Shown here one piece after another: positions 8,908-60,219 of a stretch of DNA of 64,000 nucleotides. Made by a program: the position numbers and the translations under genes. The first letter of the stretch is position 1, and each line of letters opens with the position of its first letter. A model generated the notes under the pieces. The model saw only the letters and a program-made list of their open reading frames with translations. It made no database searches and was not told the DNA's origin. This DNA comes from Sulfolobales archaeon (lineage in GTDB: Archaea > Thermoproteota > Thermoprotei_A > Sulfolobales > AG1). The stretch lies in NCBI GenBank assembly GCA_038867615.1, contig JAWBYA010000001.1:224001-288000 (forward strand). Reading direction: 5' to 3'.

Positions 8908-8931
8908 ATTTCAATTCTATAGTAGATCGAC
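8908..8931 (-). CRISPR. Solitary CRISPR repeat R1 (GTCGATCTACTATAGAATTGAAAT)
   Basis: This 24-mer recurs at 11408 and 15136. It has the 3' ATTGAAA(N) end and the ATCTACTATAGAATTGAAAG core of Sulfolobales repeats. No array follows. Confidence 0.8.
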
Positions 8932-9123
8932 CCTGCGAAGTCATGGTTTGCTTTTAGCCTAACGACATTGGGGTTTCCATCTAGGTTCGAGAGATCATTC
9001 CCTGGGCGGCTTGAAGCTCTGCTCCCATCACCGTCCAGGGTCAGTATTGAGATCAACTCATCACCAGAAACAATTCCGATCAAAGCTTATAAATACCTCC
9101 CACGAGTATCAATAAGAAAACAG
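8932..9123 (-). repeat. Family A CRISPR-leader-like element, copy A1
   Basis: Co-linear with 15160-15357 and the split copy at 11432-11970; TATA at 9087-9094; palindrome at 9013-9025; terminal AGAAAACAG. Confidence 0.85.
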
Positions 9124-11347: not shown

Positions 11348-11431
11348 CTTTCTATTAATAGCTACTTGGTATGCTATCTCAGCGGCTTTCTCGCCAGAGA
11401 GAAGCATCTTTCAATTCTATAGTAGATCGAC
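11348..11431 (-). CRISPR. Mini-CRISPR unit: repeat R2 (11408-11431), 37-nt spacer-like segment and possible degenerate terminal repeat (11348-11370)
   Basis: R2 is ctttcaattctatagtagatcgac on the + strand. 60 bp lower lies ctttctattaatagctacttggt, a partial match. R2 itself is solid; the second repeat is tentative. Confidence 0.65.
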
Positions 11432-11970
11432 CCTGTGGGTTTGTTGATGACTGTTGAGCCCAGCTGCATAGGGCTTCTATCTATTGTGAGATCATTCCCT
11501 AGATGGGGTTCGGGCTTCATAGCGGTTGATTTTGCTTGATATCAACCGCTCAGCCCTTGGTTTCATAGGCCTCAGGGCCCCTTTCATTGGAGCCCTTATC
11601 ACTGGCCTCCACCCGTTCGGGGTGACCCCAACCCACAGCTTCCCTTCATTGCATTGCTCTGGTTCATTGCTGTGGGGAACCCCTGCATTTTGGATTTTAT
11701 TTAACCCGCCCCTCGGGTCTCTATCTCTATCCTCATTGTTGGGCGGCATCCCAGTGAAATATAAGAGCTTATATAAGGTTACATTACTGCAGAACTACGA
11801 GCTTAATATCAACCCCTATAAACCACCATGAAGCTCGAAGCAGCTGGCTACGGCTTGGAGCTATGCTCCCATCACCACCTAGAGTCAATATTGAGATCAA
11901 CTCATCACCAGAAACAATTTTAATCAGATATTATAAATCTTTACATAGGATATCAGTAAGAAAAACAGCC
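11432..11970 (-). repeat. Family A leader-like element, copy A2, split by a family B insertion
   Basis: 11432-11506 and 11850-11970 rejoin to a sequence co-linear with A1 and A3; TATA at 11931-11938; palindrome at 11857-11869. Confidence 0.85.
11507..11849. mobile_element. Family B MITE-like element, long copy B2 nested in A2
   Basis: Imperfect ~34-bp subterminal inverted repeats (26/34 by hand); flanked by ATGG and ACGG; close homolog at 29907-30161. Confidence 0.85.
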
Positions 11971-12130
11971 TGTTATAATTATGTCGCCCTTCGAGTACTC
12001 CTTGATCATGTTGTGAAGGCTTCTGCGAAGATTCTCTTACTAGCTATGTCTTTCACTTCTAAGCCTTTCTTAGGGTATTTATAAGTATTCTATAGATAAT
12101 CTATTTATGGGTTCCTTTTTTAAAGCGGGA

Positions 12131-15135: not shown

Positions 15136-15159
15136 TTTTCAATTCTATAGTAGATCGAT
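15136..15159 (-). CRISPR. Solitary CRISPR repeat R3 (ATCGATCTACTATAGAATTGAAAA)
   Basis: The internal 22 nt are identical to R1 and R2; it abuts leader copy A3; no second repeat was seen. Confidence 0.8.
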
Positions 15160-15357
15160 CCCATGGGTTTATGGGCTGCCGTCGAGCCAAACAGCACTTG
15201 ACTCCCATCTAGGTTTAAGGGATCATCCCCCGGATGGCTCGGAGCATTGCTCCCATCACCACCCAGAATCAACATGGAGATCAACTCATCACCAAAAACA
15301 ATTCCAACCATAAGATTATAAATCTTTCCCACGAATATTAAAAAGAAAACAGCCCAG
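15160..15357 (-). repeat. Family A leader-like element, copy A3
   Basis: Co-linear with A1; TATA at 15316-15323; palindrome GGAGCATTGCTCC at 15241-15253; terminal AAAAGAAAACAGCCCAG. Confidence 0.85.
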
Positions 15358-22744: not shown

Positions 22745-23995
22745 CTAGCCGTTCTCGGCTTTCTTTACTTTTAAAATGATCCCCTCCATCGATACTACGA
22801 CTACCTTCGATCCTGACGGTATCTTGCCACTGACAGAATATGCTGTCCATTCCTCGCCTGCTACGTAGACCACACCGGGGGTGTTTTCGTCTATATCTGT
22901 CTTTGCAAGACCTATCTTTCCAACAATAAGCTCTTCCGGCTTGTATCTCTTCATCCTCACAGCCTGCCCTGCTTTATATGCTATGAAGCCTACGAGCCCG
23001 CCAAATCCTAGTATGAGGGCTGCTACCCCTGCTAGTTCTAGGCTTAGGGTTCCCGGGGGTCTCTGGAGTATTAGCATTGATATCCCTGCTGCTATCAGGA
23101 CTATGCCTGCTATTCCGAAGGCGCCGAAGCCTGGTGTTGTGACCTCTATTAGTGTTAGCACTACTCCTGAGAGTAGGAGGGTTATTACCAAGAGGTCTGG
23201 GGGTACGAGGCTCATGCCATAGAGGGCTAGCAGGATTAGGAGGGCGCCTGCTATCGCGTATCCCTGAAAACCTGTGGTGAAGATCTCTGCTAGTATTAGG
23301 TAGACTCCTATTGTTAGTATGAGCGAATATATCAGTGGATCAGATAGTAGAGAGACTATTCCCTCAAAGAAATCCTTACTATATCTAGACCCAATCACGA
23401 GACCCTCTTTATCGAGCACCTCCTCAAGACTTGAGGCTGGAGATGCTATGCCTATCGAGACAGCTTCCCTCTCAGTCAGTGTTAGGCTCTCCTTAACAAA
23501 TCTCTCAGCGATCTCCACCTTAGCCGGGTCGTCAAAGGCTCTTTGAGCCAAAGCCCTGAATCTCGAGGCAACATAGCTCACAGTCTTCTCATCAGAGGGT
23601 ATAGGTTTGGCAGCCCCTATACTGCTCCCAGGCCCCATATAGATCTTTCCACACGCTATCGCAACCATAGATGCTGCCGAGGCAGCCTTCCCACCCGGGG
23701 GTATGTATGCAACACACCTAGCACCTGAGCCAACCAATATCTCGGCTATCCTGTCAGCAGATGCTACATAGCCTCCATAGCTATCTATGATGAGTGTAAT
23801 CGACATGCTATTATCAAGAGCGCTCTTCACAGCCCTCTCTACCAGGGAGACCATCCCGCCGTCGATGTTACCAATAACATCGACTACTATGGTGGACTGC
23901 TTAGAGGCGCTTTGGGCTAATACAGCTATATGGATTGATGTGGTGAGAATGAATAACACCGTGACTAGCGTTATTAAAGCACTATATCCCCTCAT
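22745..23995 (-). CDS. nfeD: NfeD/STOPP membrane-bound ClpP-class protease
   Basis: IDSYGG, AASAA, GAAKP, TM block and C-terminal OB fold GEEWTA. Confidence 0.92.
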   Translation of the reverse strand: MRGYSALITLVTVLFILTTSIHIAVLAQSASKQSTIVVDVIGNIDGGMVSLVERAVKSALDNSMSITLIIDSYGGYVASADRIAEILVGSGARCVAYIPPGGKAASAASMVAIACGKIYMGPGSSIGAAKPIPSDEKTVSYVASRFRALAQRAFDDPAKVEIAERFVKESLTLTEREAVSIGIASPASSLEEVLDKEGLVIGSRYSKDFFEGIVSLLSDPLIYSLILTIGVYLILAEIFTTGFQGYAIAGALLILLALYGMSLVPPDLLVITLLLSGVVLTLIEVTTPGFGAFGIAGIVLIAAGISMLILQRPPGTLSLELAGVAALILGFGGLVGFIAYKAGQAVRMKRYKPEELIVGKIGLAKTDIDENTPGVVYVAGEEWTAYSVSGKIPSGSKVVVVSMEGIILKVKKAENG

Positions 23996-24054
23996 AAGAG
24001 TGTCCAGTAGTAATAAGTAAGGGGATGTATAAAACCATAATTGTGGGGATCAGT

Positions 24055-24981
24055 ATGATCTGTTCTAAGGCTCCTGGGAAGATAATCCTGTTTGGAGAGC
24101 ACTTTGTAGTGAAAGGGGTTCCGGGTATTGGCATGGCTGTCAGCTCCTATGCAAAGGCATGTGTTGAGGAAAGCGATAAGAACACGGTTTTATCGAAACA
24201 GCTGGGCCTGGTTTATGACGAGGCTGAGGGGGTAGGTTTTGGGGGTGGCTTTGAAGTTATATTCAAGCTCATCGCCTCTATGGGTTGCTCTAAGAGGGTG
24301 AGGGCTTATATAGATTCCTCTATATTTATGGGCTCTGGGATGGGTTCTTCAGCAGCATCCTCGGTTGCTCTGATCCATGCTCTCATGAGGCTCTGCGGTT
24401 TAGACCCCTCTAAGGAGGTTGTGTCTAGGATAGCCTTTGAGGCTGAGAAGGCTGTCCACGGAAAACCTAGCGGTATTGATAATACCCTAGCAACCTATGG
24501 GGGGCTACTTTACTACAGATCCGGGGTTTTTGAGAGGATAGATATCAAATGGCCCGAGGAGTATTCGTTGCTTGTTGTGAACACAGGGATCCATAGAGAG
24601 ACAGGGGTTGTGGTTAAAGACGTTCTAAACCTCTATGAGAGGAGGAGAGGGGTTTTAGAACATATATACAAGGCTGCGGAAGAGCTTGTAAACCAAGCCC
24701 TAGCAATGCTGAAGAAAGGGGATTTCGAGAACCTGGGGGAGTTGATGAATATAAACCAAGGATTACTATATACTGTGAATGTTTCATGCCCGAAATGTGA
24801 GGAGATAATCTGGCTCCTCAGGAGAAACAAAGCCCTAGGGGTCAAGCTAAGCGGTGCTGGGAGGGGAGGGATCATAATAGCCCTATATAGAAAGAAAGAT
24901 CTAGAGGGTGTGAGGCAGCTACTAAAAGAAGAGAGCCTAGTAGTAAGCCTCGACGAGCAAGGGGTTCTTTCAATTTCGTAG
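24055..24981 (+). CDS. mvk: Mevalonate kinase (GHMP family)
   Basis: APGKIILFGEHFVV, GSGMGSSAA, HGKPSGID and KLSGAGRGG motifs. Confidence 0.93.
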   Translation: MICSKAPGKIILFGEHFVVKGVPGIGMAVSSYAKACVEESDKNTVLSKQLGLVYDEAEGVGFGGGFEVIFKLIASMGCSKRVRAYIDSSIFMGSGMGSSAASSVALIHALMRLCGLDPSKEVVSRIAFEAEKAVHGKPSGIDNTLATYGGLLYYRSGVFERIDIKWPEEYSLLVVNTGIHRETGVVVKDVLNLYERRRGVLEHIYKAAEELVNQALAMLKKGDFENLGELMNINQGLLYTVNVSCPKCEEIIWLLRRNKALGVKLSGAGRGGIIIALYRKKDLEGVRQLLKEESLVVSLDEQGVLSIS

Positions 24982-24990
24982 TAAATCGGC
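24967..24990 (-). repeat. Degenerate CRISPR-repeat copy R4 overlapping the mvk stop codon
   Basis: ctttcaatttcgtagtaaatcggc matches R2 at 19/24; the ATTGAAAG handle is intact on the - strand. Confidence 0.6.
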
Positions 24991-25163
24991 GAAACAGTCC
25001 TCGGTGTATAAATAATCGGCTGGGTTTGGGACTTATAAAAACAAAAGATCCCTTGGGTCGTTTTAGAAGATTCTGTGGAAGAAGAGATAAAGATACTAAG
25101 GCTATTGGGTTTTGCCATCATTAAAACTAAGGATCAAATACGAAGTTCCGCATAATATAGTAG

Positions 25164-28145
25164 TTAAGTCGATCTACTAAAGAATTGGGAGAGATCGCGG
25201 TAGAGCTCTACAAGCATCTCCTCCACATCCTCTCTCCTCAAGCTCGGTTGCAGGGCTTTTAACACCATGGTATCTAGCTCGATCCTTTTTTCCTGGGGCG
25301 GGAAGTATTGTTCCGGCAGTCTTTTTAGCTCGGAGTGTTTGAACATATCGAAGATCTCTGAGAGAGTGTTGATCTTACCTTCTGGAAGTGATGTGATATC
25401 AAGGACTGGGAGGAGTTTCCAGTGGGTTATTTTAAGACTGCTCCACGCACCCTCGGTCTCCTCCCTGTGGGCTATGATGCTCATAATCCCCCATGTGGTG
25501 TTAAGCCATAGGCATAGCGCTTTGAGCTTTCTATCATCGTTGCCTGTTTTGAGTCTAACGGCATAGAATATGTTTGAGAGTACAGGTTTTGTAACATAGA
25601 TCGCTGTTACATGGGCTGTGTTGAGCCTTATTCTCTCTGGGACGAGGAGGCTGCTTGCAAACCTCTCAAATATTCTTCTCGCTTTCCCATCCTTCGGAAG
25701 GATCCGGGCGTTAGGATCGGTCTGTAACCGGGTTCTCAACTCTTCTCCCCCACCATATAGGGCTGGCAGAGATCCTGGCGCCTCTGCAGCTCTTCTAAAG
25801 CTATCGTGGAATTGATGCCTGTCAATCCCGATCACCGCTATCTCTCCAAGCCTCTTAACCGGGATCCTTATCTCTCTAGCTCCAAGCCTTATACTACCCT
25901 CTAGCAGCTCTAACACATAGTTTGAGAGCCGCGGGTTTGTGAATGCTAATAGCTTTCCCCAGTTATCCAGGTGCTTTAGAAGCAATCGCCTCGGGATCGT
26001 ATATACAATGCCACAAGATCTTCCAGCCTCTACATTGCTGCCTAGGCTGCTGCTCCCTAGCGTTATATCTATCTCAGCGGCTTTCCCACACCTATCTATG
26101 ATTTCATGTGCCAGCCATACTCCCTCAAGTGCTGTTTTAGGTTTTCTGACCAGGTTTGCTATGCATGTTCTCTCATCCTCAACATGCTTATCAACCCTCC
26201 TTGCGATCACGAGGCACTCGCTCAGGTCTGTAGATTCGCTAAAACCATAGCCTTCTTCGGGATCGTTGCTAACAATAACATATTCTAGGTGGAATCTCGA
26301 TGCTAAGAACGATCGTGCGAGGAACCAGCTTATCCCTGACAAGAGATTCCTGGGTAGAACAAACGCTATCCTACCCCCCTCTTTTACCAGCTCCCCAGCA
26401 ATGTATAGGAAGAGGAGCCCTTCACCAGCCTGTCCAATCTCTAGGAAGGTTTTTACACCTTCCCCGCTGAGTGAGGTTTCTAGTTCTTTCAGGAAAGCCT
26501 TTCCCTCGCTAGTCTCGGATAACATGTATCTCACATATTCTCTAAGTCTCTTGTAGGATCTGAGGAGCTTCTCCCTAGCATGCTTATCCACTATAAAGCC
26601 GAAGAGCCCTGATTCTTTCCTGCCGCCTCTTCCAGTTGCTCTGGTGAAGGGAGGGTTCATTATGATTAGGTCAAACCTTTCTGGAAGATCTATTATTTCT
26701 TCCTTCCTAGAGGCAGAGATCCTGATTATACCTCTGCTCCTCGGAGGGTTTGCAAGAATCCTCTGCACTAGATCCAGGCTTCCCATAGATACAGATCCGT
26801 TAGGGCCTATTCCAAGCGGTGCTGTGTAGATATTCATGCTTTGTGGAGAAGCTTCGGGATTATGGAGGGCAAGGATCGTGGTTGTTATATATGTTGCGAA
26901 TCTAAGGGAATCCAACCCCCAGAGGGTTTTCTCCAAAACAGTCCTGTGGAAGCCCTCAACATCGACTTCCAACCCTTCTTTCAAGCGATCTCTGGTATAG
27001 AGGTATAGAAGACCATCGTAAGAGGCTGAGAGAAGAGTTCCCGAGCCGCATGCTAGATCGGCTATTCTGAAATTATCAAGAGAGCTGAGGCTCTGCCACG
27101 CCTGGTTTGGGGTTGTAAGGGCTAGTCTGGCAAGCAGGTACGATGAAGGTATGCTTGTAAAATATGTTGCTAGGTTCTTCCTAACAGCCCAGCTCCCTAC
27201 TATTGTATGGTATATCTTGCCCGCGAAATCGCGTCTCAACAAGGTCTTGTTGCTTGCTATGCTGCTTGCAAAGCCGATCAGATCCATGATCGCTTGTTGA
27301 GCGTCTATAGGGAGTTTTTCAACGATCTCCTTGGCAATGCTGAAGATCGGTTGGTTGTTTATTTTAACAATACTATCGAAGGCTTTCTCAAGGGCTGGTA
27401 GGCCGTTTCTCCCTCCTACCAGGCTTTCCAGGGGTTTGAGGCCGTGTTTGGCTCTTATACTCTCATAGAGTATGGCGCTTAGGAGGATAGCTAGGGCTGC
27501 TTTACCATAGATCATTTCCTTGATATCCTCTACCTCTCCTATGGAGATGCCGTAGAGTTTATGGAAAACATTGTAGAGCTCTCTACATATAGATAGATCT
27601 CTATCCACAGAGCCTAGGGTTTTGATTAGCCGGTTGATAAGCTTCTCTATCTCCTCCTCGGCTTTTCTAATCATTTCCTCCAAAACCAGGTGCTGGATCG
27701 CTTGGTCTATGCTATCCCTTAGAAGGGGTACATCGACCCTAAGCCACCCTTGCGTGAGCAGCTCTCGCGGAGATTCCTTAGATCTCTTCTCCAAGAAGCG
27801 CGATAGATTTCTCGTCACATCTTCTCCGGGTATGAAGAACCTAGCCCTCAATACAGATCTTTCCAAGATCTCCTCGATCTCATCCTCCGCAACTTCCTCA
27901 GGAAAAGCCTGTCTATCATACCAGATAGCTACGGCTATGTCGCAAAGCCCGCTCTCAAGCCTCTCTATCGCATTTCTTTCAGCAACACGAGCTTCGTAGG
28001 ATCCTTCGAGGGCTATTCTGAAACCCTTATACAGAAGAACTATGCCTGTAGAACCATCTATATATATCTCAACCCTCTCTTTAAAACCATGCCTCCCAAG
28101 CAGCCGGGCTAAGGTCCTGCTAACCCTACCTTCATCGATACCCAA
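25164..28145 (-). CDS. Type IIG/Eco57I-like fused restriction-modification protein (amino-DNA methyltransferase)
   Basis: 993 aa; motif I DLACGSGTLL; motif IV NPPF; long C-terminal target-recognition region. Confidence 0.88.
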   Translation of the reverse strand: MGIDEGRVSRTLARLLGRHGFKERVEIYIDGSTGIVLLYKGFRIALEGSYEARVAERNAIERLESGLCDIAVAIWYDRQAFPEEVAEDEIEEILERSVLRARFFIPGEDVTRNLSRFLEKRSKESPRELLTQGWLRVDVPLLRDSIDQAIQHLVLEEMIRKAEEEIEKLINRLIKTLGSVDRDLSICRELYNVFHKLYGISIGEVEDIKEMIYGKAALAILLSAILYESIRAKHGLKPLESLVGGRNGLPALEKAFDSIVKINNQPIFSIAKEIVEKLPIDAQQAIMDLIGFASSIASNKTLLRRDFAGKIYHTIVGSWAVRKNLATYFTSIPSSYLLARLALTTPNQAWQSLSSLDNFRIADLACGSGTLLSASYDGLLYLYTRDRLKEGLEVDVEGFHRTVLEKTLWGLDSLRFATYITTTILALHNPEASPQSMNIYTAPLGIGPNGSVSMGSLDLVQRILANPPRSRGIIRISASRKEEIIDLPERFDLIIMNPPFTRATGRGGRKESGLFGFIVDKHAREKLLRSYKRLREYVRYMLSETSEGKAFLKELETSLSGEGVKTFLEIGQAGEGLLFLYIAGELVKEGGRIAFVLPRNLLSGISWFLARSFLASRFHLEYVIVSNDPEEGYGFSESTDLSECLVIARRVDKHVEDERTCIANLVRKPKTALEGVWLAHEIIDRCGKAAEIDITLGSSSLGSNVEAGRSCGIVYTIPRRLLLKHLDNWGKLLAFTNPRLSNYVLELLEGSIRLGAREIRIPVKRLGEIAVIGIDRHQFHDSFRRAAEAPGSLPALYGGGEELRTRLQTDPNARILPKDGKARRIFERFASSLLVPERIRLNTAHVTAIYVTKPVLSNIFYAVRLKTGNDDRKLKALCLWLNTTWGIMSIIAHREETEGAWSSLKITHWKLLPVLDITSLPEGKINTLSEIFDMFKHSELKRLPEQYFPPQEKRIELDTMVLKALQPSLRREDVEEMLVELYRDLSQFFSRST
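25168..25191 (+). repeat. Degenerate CRISPR-repeat copy R5 inside the last codons of the R-M gene
   Basis: gtcgatctactaaagaattgggag matches the R2 repeat at 21/24 and is inverted relative to R4. Confidence 0.7.
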
Positions 28146-28459
28146 TCCGTATCCCCAACCACATTTATCCGGTATCCTGTTACATGGATGACGCGCTCTG
28201 CCTAATTAAAATAGATATTCGAGGCTTCTTAGCTATTATAGGTAGCAAGAGAAATCTATATAAATAGCATAGCTATCAGAGTTGGTGCAGATAGCGAAAC
28301 AGGTGAGATGCTTAGGTGATGGTATTCGATTAGACCCTAACGATCTCGTGGCTTAAATCTCTAAGGACGCTTTAGCGATAAACAAGAGTGATCGAACTAT
28401 GGCTAGGTATTTATCATGTATTTTTATATTTTTCTGCTAACTACCGGTTGGTGTTCTTG

Positions 28460-29845
28460 TTGAGCCCGAACTATGATGAGATCTCTAGAAAAGCTGTTCG
28501 GTATATTGAGGATAACTATAACAGGTATATAGATCTTCTTGGAAGCCTTATTGAGTATAAAACAGTGGCTGCCTGGGGAGGAGACGATATGGCTAGGTGT
28601 GCAGATTACCTTGCATCAATTCTCAGGGAGAGGGGTTTCAAGACCCAGATTAAAAGTGGTGGTGGGCATCCAGTGGTTCTAGCCGAGGTTGGTTCAGGCT
28701 CTAGGAGCGTGCTTATATATAACCACTATGACGTCCAGCCCCCCGATCCTGTTGAGCTCTGGGAGAGTGATCCTTTTAAGCTGTCTAGGAGGGGGGATTA
28801 TCTGTTCGCGAGGGGTGTTGCTGATAATAAGGGTAATATTGCTGCTAGGATCGGCGCGATCGACGCGATCATTGATAGCATCGATAAGCTCGACCTCAAG
28901 ATCAAGTTCTTTATAGAGGGCGAGGAGGAGATCGGATCACCAACCCTTGGGAGGGTTATTCAGGATAATAAGGAGTGGATAAGATCTGATGGGGGGATAT
29001 GGGAGACGGGATATATTAGAAGAGATGATAGGCTCGGCATAAGCCTTGGCTTCAAGGGCATGCTATATATAGAGATTATTCTCAAAGGGGCTTCGAGGGA
29101 TGTTCACAGCGGTAATGCCCCCCTGGTTCCCAACCCTGTGTGGAGGATGGTTAGGCTGCTCTCTCTCCTCAAGGATGAGCATGGCAGGATCTATGTTCCA
29201 GGCTTCTACGACGACATAGATCCCGAGTTCGTGAGGGCTGGTGAAGAGCTTGTGAAGAAAATGGATACAGCAGAGCTTGAGGAGATGATGAAGGATCTAG
29301 GGCTTAAGAGCTTCGTCGGGGGTGTAAGCGGTTACGAGGCTCTCAGGAAACTCCACCTAGAACCATCGCTAAACGTCTCAGGCCTCTACTCCGGCTATAC
29401 TGGTAAGGGTTCAAAAACAATAGTACCCTCGATAGCTGGGGCTAAGATCGATATAAGACCAGTCCCAGGCCAAGACCCAGAGAAGATCCTCGGCAATCTC
29501 AAGAAATATCTGAAGGAGAACGGCTTTGAAGACGCCCAGATCGTTGTGCACAGCATGTATAGATCTGGATATACAAAGCCCGGAGAGGCAATAGTGAGGG
29601 CTACGGTTAACGCAGCTATAAAAGCCTATGGGAAAGAGCCGTCTGTATCTCCTCTCTCCGGAGGCTCAGGCCCTATGTATTACTTCACCAACATTGCTGG
29701 AACCCCAATGAGCGGGGCTGGTGTAGGGTATTACGGCTCGAAAGCCCATGCACCTAACGAGAACATAAGGGTTAGGGATTTCGTTAACGGGATGAAACAC
29801 TTCGCCCTAACCCTTATAGAGTTCTCAGCCCTAGCTAGGAAGTAG
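28460..29845 (+). CDS. M20/M25/M40 metallopeptidase (ArgE/DapE-like dipeptidase)
   Basis: YNHYDVQP, RGVADNKG, EGEEEIGS and HAPNE motifs; start refined to TTG 28460. Confidence 0.93.
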   Translation: MSPNYDEISRKAVRYIEDNYNRYIDLLGSLIEYKTVAAWGGDDMARCADYLASILRERGFKTQIKSGGGHPVVLAEVGSGSRSVLIYNHYDVQPPDPVELWESDPFKLSRRGDYLFARGVADNKGNIAARIGAIDAIIDSIDKLDLKIKFFIEGEEEIGSPTLGRVIQDNKEWIRSDGGIWETGYIRRDDRLGISLGFKGMLYIEIILKGASRDVHSGNAPLVPNPVWRMVRLLSLLKDEHGRIYVPGFYDDIDPEFVRAGEELVKKMDTAELEEMMKDLGLKSFVGGVSGYEALRKLHLEPSLNVSGLYSGYTGKGSKTIVPSIAGAKIDIRPVPGQDPEKILGNLKKYLKENGFEDAQIVVHSMYRSGYTKPGEAIVRATVNAAIKAYGKEPSVSPLSGGSGPMYYFTNIAGTPMSGAGVGYYGSKAHAPNENIRVRDFVNGMKHFALTLIEFSALARK

Positions 29846-29906
29846 AGTCTCCACCGGATCCTAGTTTTTCCCAGCAAGGTTTTTGGTAAGCCGTGATCCT
29901 ATGTGG

Positions 29907-30161
29907 GGTTCGGGCTTCATTGCGGTTGATATTGATATCAACCGCTCTTCCCTTGGCTTCATAGGCCTCAGGGCTCCTTTCATTGGGGCCCATATCCTGG
30001 ATCTCTCTGTATTTACCCCGCCCACTCGGGTCTTTATTTTTTACCCTCATTGTTGGGCAGCATCCCATAGAATAACAGGGCTTATATAATGTTCATTACT
30101 GCAGAACTACGGGTTTAATATCAACCCCTATAAACCACCATGAAACCTGAAACAGCCGGCT
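29907..30161. mobile_element. Family B MITE-like element, copy B3
   Basis: Aligns to B2 but lacks a ~90-bp internal block; 11-bp perfect IR GCGGTTGATAT-tg-ATATCAACCGC; flanked by TGG on both sides. Confidence 0.85.
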
Positions 30162-30174
30162 ATGGCGGTGACAA

Positions 30175-31029
30175 CTATATAGCCATTAGGAAGACTCCTG
30201 TGAATGCTACTACCGCTGCTATGTAACCCCGCAGCCCGGGGTTCTCGGCTGTTCTGCTATAGAAAACCCTTGTCAGTGTTGTTGCAACAACGGGTCTTAT
30301 GTTCTGTAGAGGGGTTACTATGCTTGCTCCTAGCTGGACTAGCGCGACATATCTAGCCACCTGCCCCAGCGATGCTAGAACCCCTGCTAGGTATACTGCT
30401 GTGTTGTTTCTGCTAAAGATACCGCGGATCTCTGTGTTTCTCAGTAGGAATGCCTCGAAGGCTATGCTGGAGGTATATGCTATCAAGGCTCCTGCGAACG
30501 GGTCTCCGCCATTTATATTTCCAAGCCTGCTTAGAAAGATGGCTAGCGCTAGCCCGAAAGAGGCTATAAGCCCGGCAATTATCCCTCTTGGATCCTTTTT
30601 GATCTCGCCCCTCCATGCCACCATGATGGCTGCTATAAGTATTAAAAGAGCTCCTAGTGCCTGGGTTGGTGATACTCTTTCTCCCACACCAGTACCTAGA
30701 GCTATACCGATCACTATGCTTAGGGTGAGCATTATACTTGCTCCGCTAGCACCTATAGTCCTTATAGCCACATAGAGAGAGGCTCTCCCAACGTTGAAGT
30801 TCACCAGCCCGGCTATTATGTATAGTATAATAGACTCGATGCTAATTGCACTAAAACCCCAGAAAACCAGTGAGAAGAGAAACACGACAGGATAGCCCGA
30901 GATGAGAGATGCAAGCAACATATGGCGGGAATCCATATTAGAGCGGGAACCCCTGATCACAACATCGTGCATACCGAAGAAAACACCAACGCTAGTCCCT
31001 ACAGCATATAAAACCAGGGGATCGAGCAA
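30175..31029 (-). CDS. EamA/DMT-family transporter
   Basis: About 10 TM segments in two repeats, with a GERVS-type linker. Confidence 0.8.
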   Translation of the reverse strand: MLDPLVLYAVGTSVGVFFGMHDVVIRGSRSNMDSRHMLLASLISGYPVVFLFSLVFWGFSAISIESIILYIIAGLVNFNVGRASLYVAIRTIGASGASIMLTLSIVIGIALGTGVGERVSPTQALGALLILIAAIMVAWRGEIKKDPRGIIAGLIASFGLALAIFLSRLGNINGGDPFAGALIAYTSSIAFEAFLLRNTEIRGIFSRNNTAVYLAGVLASLGQVARYVALVQLGASIVTPLQNIRPVVATTLTRVFYSRTAENPGLRGYIAAVVAFTGVFLMAI

Positions 31030-31298
31030 TCGAGATTCACCAATGTATGCTCAATTATAGGTTTCTGTTACCAGCCTAAATACTGCGAACCACTCCTAGC
31101 AGATCTGAAATACATCAACCACATCGAGGAAAGATCCTAGCGAGCCTGATTGGCTGAATAGCCCCAGAATCGCGGGGCCAAGTTTTCGAGGGTCTTGTAT
31201 CTGCAAACAGCTTCAGGCTTTATTAAACCTGGTCTAGGTTTAACTCTAGAGGCTTATCATTTAATCGAAATGGATCTATGCTCGGCTCGTTTGGTTTG

Positions 31299-32216
31299 CT
31301 AGTATACCGGTGTAACCCATTCTCTATACTTCGGAACTTTGTTGAGCACTATTTCCTTGTAATAGTTAGAGATCTTTTGTGTCGCAGGCCCTGGGGATCC
31401 TGATCCTATGGTTTTTCCATCCACCTCGATCACTGGTGTAACCTCGGCTGCTGTACCTACCATGAAGATCTCGTCTGCTACATAGAGTTCTTCCCTCGTT
31501 ATGTCTCTCTCTTCAACCTTGTAGCCTAGGTCTTCTGCGATCCTGAAGACGGTGTCTCTTGTAATCCCCTCGAGTATAGATGCATATACAGGTGGTGTGT
31601 ATATAACGCCCCTCCTGACTATGAATAGATTCTCCCCAGACCCCTCGGCTATATAGCCCCTCCAGTCGAGCAACACGGCTTCGTCATAGCCTGATGATAT
31701 CGCCTCCGAGAGGGCTATGACTGAGTTTAGATAGATCCCAGATGCTTTAGCCATAACAGGCATTGAGAAGCCTGGAACTCTTCTCCAGCTCACGACCTTC
31801 ACTTTAACCCCCTTTGGTTTGAGGTAGTGTCCGAAGGGGATGGCTGCTATGGATACCCTTGTGGGTACTTTGGATATATCTAGCGAGATGCTTCCCTCAC
31901 CGGCGAAGGCTATGGGTCTTATGTATATATTCTCCTGGAACTCGTTAACCCTCACGGTCTTCACCGTAGCGTCGATCAGATCTTCAAGTCCGTATCCCAG
32001 TCTAAGCCCCACTATCTTAGCCGAGTTGATCATTCTTACCATATGGTCCCTGAGCCTGAATATATAGAGATTATTACCATCCCAGTAGCCCCTGATCCCC
32101 TCGAACACCGCTGTCCCGTAGTGGAGGGCGTGTGTCATTACATGGATATATGCCTTACCACACTCAACAAGATCGCCGTCCATCCATATATACCTAGTCC
32201 TTGTGCACATGGACAT
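31299..32216 (-). CDS. ilvE: Branched-chain amino-acid aminotransferase
   Basis: HALHYGTAVFEGIR, EGSGENLF, LEGITR and GTAAEV motifs. Confidence 0.96.
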   Translation of the reverse strand: MSMCTRTRYIWMDGDLVECGKAYIHVMTHALHYGTAVFEGIRGYWDGNNLYIFRLRDHMVRMINSAKIVGLRLGYGLEDLIDATVKTVRVNEFQENIYIRPIAFAGEGSISLDISKVPTRVSIAAIPFGHYLKPKGVKVKVVSWRRVPGFSMPVMAKASGIYLNSVIALSEAISSGYDEAVLLDWRGYIAEGSGENLFIVRRGVIYTPPVYASILEGITRDTVFRIAEDLGYKVEERDITREELYVADEIFMVGTAAEVTPVIEVDGKTIGSGSPGPATQKISNYYKEIVLNKVPKYREWVTPVY

Positions 32217-32347
32217 TTTTGATCGTGTGGTAGTGTTGCTGAGCACCTTATAAGGTTTACGCCTATAGTTATTCATAGAATCCCTAGGGCTCTGGCTAGC
32301 AGTGTAAAGCCTTATCAGCCTAGAGAGTATATCTGGCAGGTGAGTCT

Positions 32348-33292
32348 ATGAGGAAGGCTCTGGTGAGGGCATATATGTCATCAGCCAACCTGGGGCCTGG
32401 GTTCGATATACTCGCGGTAGCTCTTGATGCGTTCTACGATGAGGTGGAGGTTAGGGTTGTTGGAGAGGGTCTGAGCAGGATCAGCCTGAGTGTTGGCGGT
32501 AAATACGGATCCCAGGTACCAGCTGGGGAGGATAACGCTGTGCTTGCACCAATAGAGAAGGCCTTAGAAATAGCTGGGGAGAAGCTCCAGCTCGAGGTAA
32601 CACTTAATAAGGGAGTACCTCCGGGTAGGGGTCTTGGGAGTAGTGGTGCCTCTTCAGCAGCTGCTGCGAGGGCTGTGAGCGAGATCCTGGGCGGTGTTTT
32701 TCGTGATAGCGAGCTGGTATACATAGCAGGGGAGGGTGAGAGGAAAGTCTCTGGGGAGCCTCACTATGATAATGTCTCTGCAAGCCTCCTCGGAGGATTC
32801 GTCCTGGTAAGCCCTGGGGAGAGTGTTAGGGCTAGCAGGATACCTGGTGGTGAGGGTTTCAGCTTCCTCCTAGCAATCCCAGAGATCCAGGTGCCTCCTA
32901 AGAAGACAGGGCATGCTAGATCCGTGATCCCGAGGCAGGTGAGCCTGGCTGACTATATAGCTAACTCCTCCAGCCTGGCAAAACTTATCCTAGGGATAGT
33001 TACTAACAATCCAAAGCTAGCTGGCGAGGGGATGATGGATAGGATAGTAGAGCCGGCTAGGGAGAGGGCAGGGCTCATACCACTATACTCTGAGGTGAAG
33101 AACAACGCTCTAAAGGCAGGAGCCTATGGCGTTGTTGTAAGCGGTGCCGGGCCAAGCATATTGATCCTAGCAGATAGAGAGATCCATGGAGAGCTTAGGA
33201 ACATGTTAACCGAGATCTATGCTAAGAGGGGCTATAAAGCTACGATCGTGAGCGCCACCCCAGCCCCGGGTGCCCGTGTAATTATAGGCTAG
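32348..33292 (+). CDS. thrB: Homoserine kinase
   Basis: SSANLGPGFD, PPGRGLGSSGAS, HYDNV and SGAGPS motifs. Confidence 0.95.
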   Translation: MRKALVRAYMSSANLGPGFDILAVALDAFYDEVEVRVVGEGLSRISLSVGGKYGSQVPAGEDNAVLAPIEKALEIAGEKLQLEVTLNKGVPPGRGLGSSGASSAAAARAVSEILGGVFRDSELVYIAGEGERKVSGEPHYDNVSASLLGGFVLVSPGESVRASRIPGGEGFSFLLAIPEIQVPPKKTGHARSVIPRQVSLADYIANSSSLAKLILGIVTNNPKLAGEGMMDRIVEPARERAGLIPLYSEVKNNALKAGAYGVVVSGAGPSILILADREIHGELRNMLTEIYAKRGYKATIVSATPAPGARVIIG

Positions 33293-33322
33293 ATTGTTTA
33301 GAGATGGCGAGCTCACCAGGAT

Positions 33323-33757
33323 CTATGGCTCGGGCCATTTTCTCCAATCACCGAACTTCCTATCATATTCAGGACACCCTCTTCTATAGCTAACGCCTCC
33401 CTTCCATTCAACATTAACGAACAGGCTATAGAATAGCCTCTCCCTCAATGAGGGTTTCTTAACGAGGGGCGAGATCGTCTTTATAAACCTCTCCATATCA
33501 TCTCTTGAGGAGAAGTAGATAATCACGATCCCTGAAGATGCTAGGGATAATGGTGGACCGAATATCGAGTATTTAACCACCATATTCATCTCTTTCAGCA
33601 TTTTTAGCAAGTCCTTCAAAGGGATCTTTAGCGATGATACCGGGATCCCGACTTTATAGCATGAGAGCGAGTTACTATGCTGGACTCCTCTCTCAAAGCT
33701 AGCCCAGCACTCACCGCACTTGTTCCACTCGCCAAACCTCTTCCATCTAATACCCAT
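33323..33757 (-). CDS. Conserved-looking hypothetical protein
   Basis: Native codon style; CGEC and RRGCPEY motifs; function not recognised. Confidence 0.7.
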   Translation of the reverse strand: MGIRWKRFGEWNKCGECWASFERGVQHSNSLSCYKVGIPVSSLKIPLKDLLKMLKEMNMVVKYSIFGPPLSLASSGIVIIYFSSRDDMERFIKTISPLVKKPSLRERLFYSLFVNVEWKGGVSYRRGCPEYDRKFGDWRKWPEP

Positions 33758-34080
33758 ATCTTATCATCTAGCCTGATTTTGAATACCACTAGCCAGCTAT
33801 ATATTACCCTAAATCCAGGCTTTAACGCTGCTATCGTGCTAAACGCTGGCGATCCTATAGATCCTTTACATGTGGAGTTATTTAGATAAGATACATAGCA
33901 ACGTATAAAGCTATATGGCTATCAGGCAGTATAAGAGTTGTTAAGAATCACAATGGGGTCTTCGGCTAATACGTAGGTAACTCTGCTAAGATCAGAGAGA
34001 TCCTAGGATTATTGTTAATAATTCAGCTAGTAGGGAAGTGTTCTCATTAACTCACTATCATATAGGTATGTGGAGAGAGT

Positions 34081-50564: not shown

Positions 50565-50830
50565 GTTTGTCCCTGGATGTTCATTCCACTCATTTTATTC
50601 ATGGTCTTATCCAGGGGTTTTCGTCTCAACCCTCAGGATCTCGGATCTCTAATCCTGCTGGGTCATGGGTGGCTGTCGAGCCAAAGGGCATGTGGATCCC
50701 ATCTAGGATAAGCTCCGGATGGATTGGAGCGCTGCTCCCGTCTAGGGCTTGTGGGGAAAGATCCACACTGGGGGCAATACATTTCAATGATTATAAATAC
50801 CTCCTACGAATACCAAAAGGAAAAGCCCAG
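50565..50830 (-). repeat. Family A leader-like element, repeat-less copy A4
   Basis: Shares gtcgagccaa, cccatctagg, GGAGC-N3-GCTCC (50726-50738), TATA (50791-50798) and aaagcccag with A1-A3; near-identical inverted copy at 58820-59161. Confidence 0.88.
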
Positions 50831-58819: not shown

Positions 58820-59161
58820 TGGGCTGTTTTCTTTTTGATATATATAAGGAGGATTAATAGGTTTTGGAAATTTTCATTGATATAGGGGCAATGCCTGTGG
58901 GCTGCTTTCCTGCTAACACCCAGGGGTATTTATAGTCCTTGAAATGTATTACCCCCAGTGTGGATCTTTCCCCACAAGCCCTAGACGGGAGCAGCGCTCC
59001 AATCCATCCGGAGCTTATCCTAGATGGGATCCACATGCCCTTTGGCTCGACGGTCGCCCATGACCCCGCAGGATCAGAGATCCGAGATCCTGAGGGTGGA
59101 GACGAAAACCCCTGGATGTGACCATGAATAAAATGAGTGGAATGAAGATCCGGGGACAAAC
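58820..59161 (+). repeat. Family A leader-like element, repeat-less copy A5 with duplicated 5' head, upstream of cas6
   Basis: Reverse complement of A4 with ~13 differences in ~235 bp by hand; TATA at 58928-58935; TGGGCTG(T/C)TTTC-type head at both 58820 and 58898. Confidence 0.88.
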
Positions 59162-59247: not shown

Positions 59248-60219
59248 ATGGAGGGTTCCGGCGAGAACTCAGGAGGGGCTTGGCATGTTGGGGATTTTCT
59301 AGTAAATATTTATTTGAGCCTGACTCCTGTTCGTGACGTGATCCTACCCCCTCTCAGCTCTAAGGTTATTAAGAATTTAATAGATTCTGGGAGCTTTCTC
59401 AAGGGTTTGGGGACTCTTAGTTCTTCAAAGGATCACTATAAGCCTTTCTTCATATCATGTCTCTATAGGGCTGATGGTAAGAGGCTATATAGAGTTCATG
59501 GCAAGAAGGGCTATGATAGTCTGTTAACTGCTAGGGGTGGGGAGCATCTCATGGCGAGGGTGTCTGCTGTTGTGCCGAGGGACGTTATAGGTGATTTGCT
59601 AGGCATTGGGAGAGGGGGTTTTGAGACGAGCTATGGCTCTTTTAATGTTGTTTTCGACAAGATCGAGGTTATAGATCTTAGGGAGCTCAGGCTCGACCTC
59701 TCAAGGGGTCTTGTTATGGTTTTTAAAACACCTGTTATCCTATCCCCGAAGATTATTCTACCACCGCTGAAGAAGATCATGGATAAGTATGGTAAAACGA
59801 AGATCGGTCATCTAACGCTACCAGTACCTGGGTTGATCTTTGCACATGCTCTCAGACTATGGAATAGATCTGTGCCGGAGGATCTTAGGTTAACGAGGCC
59901 GAATGATAAGGATGATATATACTCATACAGAGCTGCAGTGATGGGTACAGCTTTAACCGAGGTGGTGGATCACAAAACCTGGACCGAGACAGTAATTCTA
60001 GGGAAGAATGAGAAAGGGGTTCTTAGAAAGACCAGAGGGTTTAGAGGGTATATTGTTATGAATATAAAGCACAAGATCACTAGGAGGGCTATGGAGAGGG
60101 CGCTAGCCCTAGCCAAATACCTGGGGATTGGGAGGGGTAGGGGTATAGGTCTTGGCGAGGTAGAGATCGATCTTAGGGTTGAGAGAGGAGGGACCGAGCT
60201 GGGTAGCGAGGGTATCTAG
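59248..60219 (+). CDS. cas6: CRISPR-associated endoribonuclease Cas6, stand-alone
   Basis: C-terminal G-rich loop ALAKYLGIGRGRGIGLGEV (GhGxxxxxGhG); KPFFIS, F.TP and RGFRG blocks of the crenarchaeal Cas6 RAMP fold. No other cas gene in the window. Confidence 0.9.
   Translation: MEGSGENSGGAWHVGDFLVNIYLSLTPVRDVILPPLSSKVIKNLIDSGSFLKGLGTLSSSKDHYKPFFISCLYRADGKRLYRVHGKKGYDSLLTARGGEHLMARVSAVVPRDVIGDLLGIGRGGFETSYGSFNVVFDKIEVIDLRELRLDLSRGLVMVFKTPVILSPKIILPPLKKIMDKYGKTKIGHLTLPVPGLIFAHALRLWNRSVPEDLRLTRPNDKDDIYSYRAAVMGTALTEVVDHKTWTETVILGKNEKGVLRKTRGFRGYIVMNIKHKITRRAMERALALAKYLGIGRGRGIGLGEVEIDLRVERGGTELGSEGI

Follow-up and report, generated by a model that had tools for sequence, protein, structure and literature searches.

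We examined a stretch of 64,000 nucleotides from the genome of a Sulfolobales archaeon (positions 224001-288000 of contig C1 in the assembly that we call G000; hereafter the window, in whose numbering positions are given unless a contig is named), and in it two short sequences at the facing 3′ ends of two convergent genes. One of these, R5 (25168-25191, + strand, reading GTCGATCTACTAAAGAATTGGGAG), is a solitary copy of the 24-nt CRISPR repeat of this genus, and the other, R4 (24967-24990, − strand; CTTTCAATTTCGTAGTAAATCGGC on the + strand, GCCGATTTACTACGAAATTGAAAG on the − strand), is a probable decayed and inverted copy of the same repeat. On balance we favor the view that an ancient rearrangement left R5, and probably R4 as well, as fossils of a single repeat each. 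Under this view, repeat-bearing DNA, either a solitary promoter-plus-repeat unit or what remained of a CRISPR locus, would have been joined to the 3′ end of a DNA methylase-like gene before the divergence of the three sampled species, with the junction falling exactly at the 3′ end of the repeat and about 11 native codons being removed. The reading frame would then have passed through the repeat in antisense and ended at the first stop codon it met, a single base past the repeat. R4 would be a more decayed inverted copy lying over the ordinary, variable tail of the opposing gene, and both copies would since have drifted like weakly constrained sequence rather than being kept as substrates for Cas6 or as CRISPR RNA (crRNA). 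The sequences themselves show the homology, junction and decay, as well as the lack of type III genes from the assembly; what the original unit was, and in which order these events took place, we infer.

The assembly comprises 2.22 Mb in 28 contigs and is 94% complete. We compared it chiefly with its two nearest relatives, the congeners G003, which is the closer, and G002, which is more distant. Of the DNA contigs from four sequencing runs, those of X5 and X6 match the window sequence exactly and those of X9 contain G003-like and G002-like alleles; they added nothing on R4 or R5. A look-up of RNA runs for 23000-27000 listed none. As the repeat consensus we used the 24-mer GTCGATCTACTATAGAATTGAAAG, which is the form found at R2 (11408-11431, − strand). 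The two genes in question are a mevalonate-kinase-like GHMP kinase gene (mvk; 24025-24981, + strand, 318 aa), whose stop lies inside R4, and an N6-adenine DNA-methyltransferase-like gene (25164-28145, − strand, 993 aa), whose product ends ..DLSQFFSRST*. R4 spans the last four codons of mvk (L-S-I-S), its stop and 9 nt beyond, and the reverse complement of R5 supplies codons S986-T993 (SQFFSRST) of the methylase-like protein. The two copies stand in inverted orientation, with a 177-bp spacer between their 5′ ends, and are identical to each other at 17 of 24 positions. An earlier note, made by a model from the letters of this stretch, had reported these positions, the matches of 19/24 and 21/24 to R2, the AT-rich gap between the copies, the overlap with both reading frames and a TATA-like sequence near 25033, and all of this holds in the sequence and its open reading frames (ORFs), with TTATAAAA found at 25033-25040.

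Both sequences fall within the resident repeat family by their resemblance to the consensus (three mismatches for R5, five for R4), and no other solitary copies in the genome are as degenerate. In 20 first-order Markov genomes, counted per 2.2 Mb on both strands, the mean number of matches was 0 at four or fewer mismatches, 0.2 at five and 3.15 at six. Because such genomes yield no matches at four or fewer mismatches, R5 certainly derives from a CRISPR repeat, far beyond chance. R4 is a probable derivative: chance would place a five-mismatch match within ±300 bp of R5 about 5e-5 times. The pair does not form a CRISPR array, being inverted and 177 bp apart rather than direct repeats with spacers of about 30-45 nt, and neither Tandem Repeats Finder nor a scan for direct repeats detected an array in the window. 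R5 has no other repeat within 100 bp, the nearest being R4.

The methylase-like gene, which has ordinary G+C content, is present in 12 of the 121 genomes of the order, and homologues at 40-54% identity occur in other genera, in G077 (at three loci), G044, G034 and G098. These homologues end in ..(L/I)Y....ALKxW followed by 1-6 residues, and their alignments to the 993-aa protein stop at residues 983-986, that is, at the 3′ end of the repeat. In the genus, the ALKxW tail is replaced by the pattern (S/Y/F)QF(F/Y/H)(S/G)(R/G)ST; after ..LYRDL the three species read SQFFSRST (G000), YQFYSRST (G003) and FQFHGGST (G002), all of it encoded by the repeat. Because homologue similarity stops at the 3′ end of the repeat and the conserved tail is missing, the repeat has replaced about 11 native codons, with the breakpoint at its 3′ end. 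The label of restriction-modification gene given to this ORF earlier is roughly apt: its product is large and resembles N6-adenine methyltransferases, showing an NPPF motif and weak matches to Pfam N6_Mtase and to PADLOC MTase_I/mad2/type IIG. No restriction partner was identified.

The situation at mvk is different. Its tail, ..DEQGVLSIS*, is of ordinary length next to the orthologues of a sister genus, which end in ..DLHGVSQI*, ..DERGVRDLLE* and ..DLYGVRSL*. By this comparison, mvk has gained no repeat-coded extension, and R4 simply overlaps its variable last residues. Around mvk the sister genus shows no synteny, which leaves no empty site to be defined.

Comparison among the three species indicates how the two copies have evolved. 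R5 occurs at the same site in all three, and its departures from the consensus differ: positions 13, 21 and 22 in G000, position 22 in G003, and positions 8, 11 and 14 in G002. Because each species deviates at different positions, the ancestral R5 was the consensus repeat. R5 has since diverged faster than the adjoining coding DNA. For the pairs G000-G003, G000-G002 and G003-G002, respectively, identity is 87.5%, 75% and 83% within R5, 92%, 85% and 88% over the next 300 nt of the methylase-like gene, and 96%, 88% and 87% further into it; for the intergenic interior the values are 87%, 52% and 57%. All three differences between G000 and G003 within R5 alter a residue. The 8-nt 5′ handle of the repeat, ATTGAAAG, shows no sign of being held intact by selection at either copy: in R5 it has mutated to ATTGGGAG in G000 and to ATTGATAG in G003, G002 keeping ATTGAAAG intact, and in R4 it is ATTGAAAG in G000 and has become ATCGAAAG in G003 through a synonymous change in mvk. 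Judging from these alignments, neither R4 nor R5 is maintained as a repeat.

R4 is the less secure member of the pair. In G003 it is identical to the G000 copy at 23 of 24 positions and to the consensus at 18 of 24; in G002 its outer half is lost, just 11 of the 24 aligned columns agree with G000, and the site has no significant local match to the repeat. Both G003 and G002 have CTTTCG where R4 in G000 has CTTTCA, and because they share it, the older form of R4 was probably a six-mismatch form. A skeptical reading would hold that only R5 derives from the repeat and that R4 is a chance likeness aided by the codons of the mvk tail, so that there is no inverted pair. About three six-mismatch matches per genome are expected by chance, the copy is unrecognizable in G002, and the mvk tail has the ordinary length seen in another genus. 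Against this, chance would still give a match of at most six mismatches within ±300 bp of R5 only about 1e-3 times, a figure that holds equally for the G003-type form; all other five-mismatch matches outside the C11 array sit in clearly repeat-related contexts; and the outer half of R4, which lies beyond mvk (TAAATCGGC), agrees with the repeat at 7 of 9 positions, and a leader-type TATAAGT lies upstream of R4. We regard chance origin of R4 as unlikely.

The spacer itself (24991-25167, G+C 36%, in a window of 47%) is unique sequence. It contains a 16-nt block, AAACAAAAGATCCCTT (25039-25054), that is invariant in all three species and that on the − strand reads as the T-run TCTTTTGTTT, which probably terminates the methylase-like gene. 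No small ORF in the spacer is conserved, frames and stops differing among the three species. A fold of the 225-nt unit formed by R4, spacer and R5 is not unusual (z = −1.2 for the + strand and −0.7 for the − strand), with pairing limited to the R4:R5 arms. The TATA-like motif TTTATAAGT (25031-25039, − strand) is of the type seen upstream of leaders and solitary repeats in this genome, but its TATAAGT lies 40 nt from R4, compared with 20-26 nt elsewhere. Among 17 repeat matches outside arrays and outside the dispersed element E described below, seven (four solitary repeats and three leaders) have [CT]ATAAG[CT] 20-26 nt upstream, where the background frequency in a 15-45 nt window is 1.8%. No such motif occurs within 60 nt upstream of R5, and the nearest A/T-rich box (25150-25160) would start an RNA inside the repeat.

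These features bear on a proposal of the earlier note, according to which divergent transcripts from R4 and R5 would be cut by Cas6 into handle-bearing antisense RNAs that guide a type III complex to cleave the mvk and methylase mRNAs without Cas10 activation. Handle pairing blocks Cas10 activation, as in anti-tag recognition, and parts of the required machinery exist: a stand-alone Cas6 gene lies in the window (59248-60219, + strand; Cas6_N 1e-16, CRISPR_Cas6 2e-9), a second, weaker Cas6 copy lies on C11, the TATA-like motif is aimed into R4, genes for CARF effectors sit beside the large array, and the relatives have type III genes. In the 94%-complete assembly, however, the recommended check for Cmr and Csm genes found no type III effector gene: searches with the RAMP model PF03787 and with TIGR02577 (Cmr2) gave no matches, TIGR02578 (Csm1) gave one partial match of 22 bits, below its cut-off, and tblastn with the six type III ORFs of G003 matched nothing in G000. 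Mutations have struck the handle of R5 in two of the three species and that of R4 in G003, R5 lacks a promoter motif at the usual distance and evolves faster than its neighbors, and R4 is lost in G002. For 22 other solitary copies in G000, crude ORF calls place the nearest downstream ORF in the same direction in 11 cases and convergent in 11, with no bias to gene 3′ ends or to antisense orientation. We consider the antisense proposal highly improbable, and the action of R4 and R5 as RNA guides is not supported by any sign.

A second proposal held that R4, the interior and R5 together form a 225-bp nonautonomous element whose terminal inverted repeats (TIRs) are CRISPR repeats, akin to a casposon or to a miniature inverted-repeat transposable element (MITE). 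The arms are indeed inverted and alike at 17 of 24 positions, 225 bp is close to the 215-217 bp of the E-derived elements described below, the genome is rich in MITE-like families, of which there are at least two, and R4 is weakly like the 5′ end of E (13/17, p ~0.008 before correction for nine tests). Yet the interior has no paralogue in the G000 genome or in any of the six genus genomes searched, the flanks show no target-site duplication, and each of the three genomes with the locus carries the unit, leaving no empty site. A profile of the E family, applied with nhmmer, matches the unit only in its repeat part, the 5′ end of E shows no match to an inverted CRISPR repeat (p ~0.4-0.7), and the 177 bp between the arms hold no ORF for Cas1 or a transposase. 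Such an element is very improbable on the present comparison. A related candidate, an attachment-site-like pair with a second repeat beyond the methylase-like gene, was set aside; the best match in 25250-34000 has nine mismatches.

R4 and R5 are best understood against the other repeats of the genome. A large array of about 120 repeats (C1:626879-634761) uses the repeat GAAGATCTACTATAGAATTGAAAG, a GAAGATC variant, and is adjoined by genes for Cas1, Csa1, Cas4, a CARF-type Csx1 and an APE2256-type protein. A 17-repeat array (C11:15505-16574) stands beside type I-A genes, and there are small arrays, including a two-repeat array (C1:487879/487942) that carries GTCGATCTACTATAGAATTGAAAG as its repeat and lies in a region, C1:485-488 kb, that is heavily rearranged relative to G003 and G002. 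Outside the two large arrays of G000 there are 32 further matches at five or fewer mismatches. Apart from R4 and R5, about 25 solitary repeats are dispersed through the genome. Repeats of an array in G003 (C15:251883-258522) match the GTCGATC variant, GTCGATCTACTATAGAATTGAAAG, at 96-100% over 23-25 nt; the solitary copies of G000 match these G003 repeats, unlike the large array of their own genome. In G003 (C15:258000-277000), a six-gene type III module lies between the array and genes matching the end of G000 contig C7. Besides R4 and R5, the copy at C4:28549 lies inside an ORF 3′ end and that at C1:535916 is spanned by an opposite-strand ORF that may be spurious. No common protein gene adjoins the solitary repeats among 52 neighboring ORFs.

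Some of these repeats belong to a dispersed element, E, of which G000 has about 70 copies. Most copies end in a hairpin followed by ..GGTGGAAGTCCCTGGAT.., and in 12-13 of them a CRISPR repeat replaces this usual end. The resulting E+repeat unit is about 216 bp long and consists of a TATA box, a body of about 165 nt that resembles a structured RNA, with a long hairpin and some compensatory changes, and the CRISPR repeat as its 3′ end. Three units lie in the window on the − strand: R1 (8908-9123, 215 bp), R2 (11408-12000, interrupted at 11507-11849 by a MITE-like element of about 343 bp nested within it) and R3 (15136-15352, 217 bp). Others in G000 are at C1:114557, 143598, 485433 and 535916, C2:202754, C4:28549 and 201440, C5:93961 and C7:66523, and among the matches listed there are at least 11 in G002 and at least 5 in G003. 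In ten aligned copies the repeat is the best conserved 24-nt block, with a mean pairwise identity of 85% against 65% for the body, and none of 165 body windows reaches its conservation. Selection to keep the repeat is thus visible in the E+repeat family, whereas R4 and R5 show none. An Rfam search with one E+repeat copy gave only sub-threshold matches, the best being C/D-box sR46 (14 bits, E 0.62), and a long-form E copy gave no match; across the window, the sole Rfam match at the gathering threshold is a tRNA.

The E+repeat units also mark sites of exchange. Compared with the corresponding region of G003 (C4:102600-121000), R1, R2 and R3 are replacement alleles: G003 has about 602 bp where R1 has 215 bp, about 320 bp where R3 has 217 bp, and 706 bp where R2 has 614 bp (11408-12021, the left BLAST boundary being inexact). 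In all three cases the similarity with G003 ends at the repeat's 3′ end, and for R1 and R3 it also ends at CTGTTTTCTT. The G003 segment at R2 is intact coding sequence comprising most of a Thi4-like gene, and that at R3 is intact coding sequence for part of a membrane-protein gene. The junction of R5 is of the same kind, and because of this R5 may, by analogy, be read as the fossil of an event comparable to the R1-R3 replacements. R3 is common to the more distant G002 and is not shared with the closer G003. An idea that the flank following the repeat might guide homing against element-free alleles was dropped: CCN, the protospacer-adjacent motif of Sulfolobales type I-A systems, precedes the flank in G003 at only one of the three sites.

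A bolder extension of these comparisons would make R5 and R4 fossils of genus-specific mobile units combining a promoter, an RNA and a CRISPR repeat, whose living members are the 215-217-bp E+repeat elements and which would be chromosomal analogues of the solitary repeat units and RNA anti-CRISPRs considered below. On insertion or recombination the repeat 3′ end would then form one junction of the mobile unit, adjacent gene segments would be deleted or replaced, and the repeat would be under selection; it could serve as a Cas6-processed 3′ end, as a decoy for Cas proteins or as a terminus for mobility. We hold this extension to be a tentative and rather unlikely one. If true, it would mean that a MITE-like RNA element captured CRISPR repeats and now remodels the ends of host genes.

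R4 and R5 might instead be DNA or RNA binding sites, either as decoys for Cas6 or other Cas proteins or as targets of a repeat-binding protein that shapes convergent termination. Solitary repeat units (SRUs) have been described as intergenic, carried on viruses or plasmids, and expressed (PMC10651486; review, PMC8616872); there are SRUs placed directly after promoters, and some SRUs act as RNA anti-CRISPRs, or Racrs (PMC10651486). In G000, too, many solitary repeats are kept, and those borne by E are selectively conserved. R4 and R5, on the other hand, are the most decayed of the solitary copies and show no conservation, and they overlap coding sequence, where the SRUs so far described are intergenic and on mobile elements; neither lies in intergenic DNA directly downstream of a promoter, R5 being inside the methylase ORF and R4 overlapping the mvk stop. 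A role as binding sites is, in our estimation, very improbable.

Several observations weigh against reading R4 and R5 as fossils of a rearrangement. The leader-type TATAAGT 40 nt upstream of R4 is retained in G003, and a weak antisense transcript may run into mvk from this motif. As for the original inserted unit, the upstream flank of R5 resembles promoter-plus-repeat units and leaders at only p ~0.10 (score 8, against a background of 4.8 ± 2.1), and the flank of R4 gives p ~0.98. Both G003 and G002 have a type III module, CARF genes stand beside the large array of G000, and a type III system may sit in the unassembled 5.6% of its genome. In addition, the three species are close (85-95% DNA identity), which gives limited power to detect constraint over 24 nt. 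The suggestion that the locus is the scar of a decayed CRISPR locus that captured the methylase-like gene fits the data in that repeat-bearing DNA was fused to the gene and the homologue tail is lost at the repeat 3′ end, the source being either such a locus or a solitary promoter-plus-repeat unit.

Comparison with known systems helps to place the fossil copies that we favor. Solitary repeats as such are already known (PMC10651486, PMC8616872). R4 and R5 share with SRUs and Racrs a single repeat of host type away from cas genes and arrays, and elsewhere in G000 the likeness goes further, with copies 20-26 nt downstream of a TATA-like motif or ending a promoter-bearing element; they differ in being chromosomal, overlapping coding sequence, degenerate and without constraint. 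An orphan or degenerate array would likewise have repeats of the resident family without adjacent cas genes, and the leader-type TATAAGT upstream of R4 recalls one, as does the divergent orientation of the pair, since paired arrays in Sulfolobales flank an adaptation cassette. There is, however, no spacer-sized spacing and no direct pair, with one repeat on each side, inverted and 177 bp apart. In CreA of CreTA, scaRNA and tracr-L, a degenerate repeat with its flank yields a crRNA-like RNA that regulates a host gene; these are conserved, have an unaltered handle and lie within cas operons or next to them, whereas the handle of R4 and R5 decays and no matching effector was found in the G000 assembly. 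A further parallel is the remodeling of gene 3′ ends by MITEs and other small mobile sequences, in which a short foreign sequence gives a host gene new terminal codons and a stop, although the R4-R5 unit occurs only once and lacks a target duplication. Among titles and the opening lines of abstracts, we found no fitting literature on CRISPR repeats carried by Sulfolobus-type MITEs.

Taken alone, R4 and R5 are a small evolutionary curiosity, in which a CRISPR repeat read backward sets the C terminus and stop of a defense-type methylase gene. They matter mainly as a pointer to the dozens of solitary repeats outside arrays in G000 and its two nearest relatives. The E+repeat family, in which the repeat is constrained and which marks sites of gene-segment replacement, is the more interesting lead. 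Should expression and processing of these units occur, they would amount to a chromosomal, MITE-borne equivalent of viral SRUs and a tractable case for studying the role of single CRISPR repeats outside arrays.

Some further observations concern the E family and its surroundings. Copies of E without a repeat (e.g., 58884-59130, + strand, and 50652-50830, − strand) often lie upstream of unrelated genes, and in one case the next gene downstream is the stand-alone Cas6 gene. Within the E body, a small hairpin (e.g., 8975-8995, − strand) shows stem covariation among CUCUC/GAGAG, CUCC/GGAG and UCCC/GGGA. Its loop, AGUAGAU in most copies, complements AUCUACU of the CRISPR repeat, and RNAalifold pairs the two. 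The MITE-like element nested in R2 (343-350 bp) has about 16 near-full-length copies at 81-89% BLAST identity, plus many fragments. The E+repeat copy on C4 (28549-28572, + strand) lies in the 3′ end of an opposite-strand ORF of 183 aa, whose stop falls 26 nt past the repeat in E-derived sequence.

Four other solitary repeats stand apart from E. Those at L074:1579-1658, L075:1530-1553, L023:8791-8814 and L073:1600-1623 lie 20-25 nt downstream of [CT]ATAAG[CT], in the same layout as the starts of true CRISPR leaders, and their architecture, in intergenic DNA of the chromosome, is SRU-like; the one at L074 is a mini-array with one spacer and a degenerate second repeat. Finally, a contig of X9, a run from another hot spring, matches the window from 25154 rightward and upstream of this position has leader-type sequence (..GCTTATAAGCTAGATAAGAATA). 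This contig may represent an allele of the locus, or a leader-plus-repeat locus of another organism aligned at 80%.

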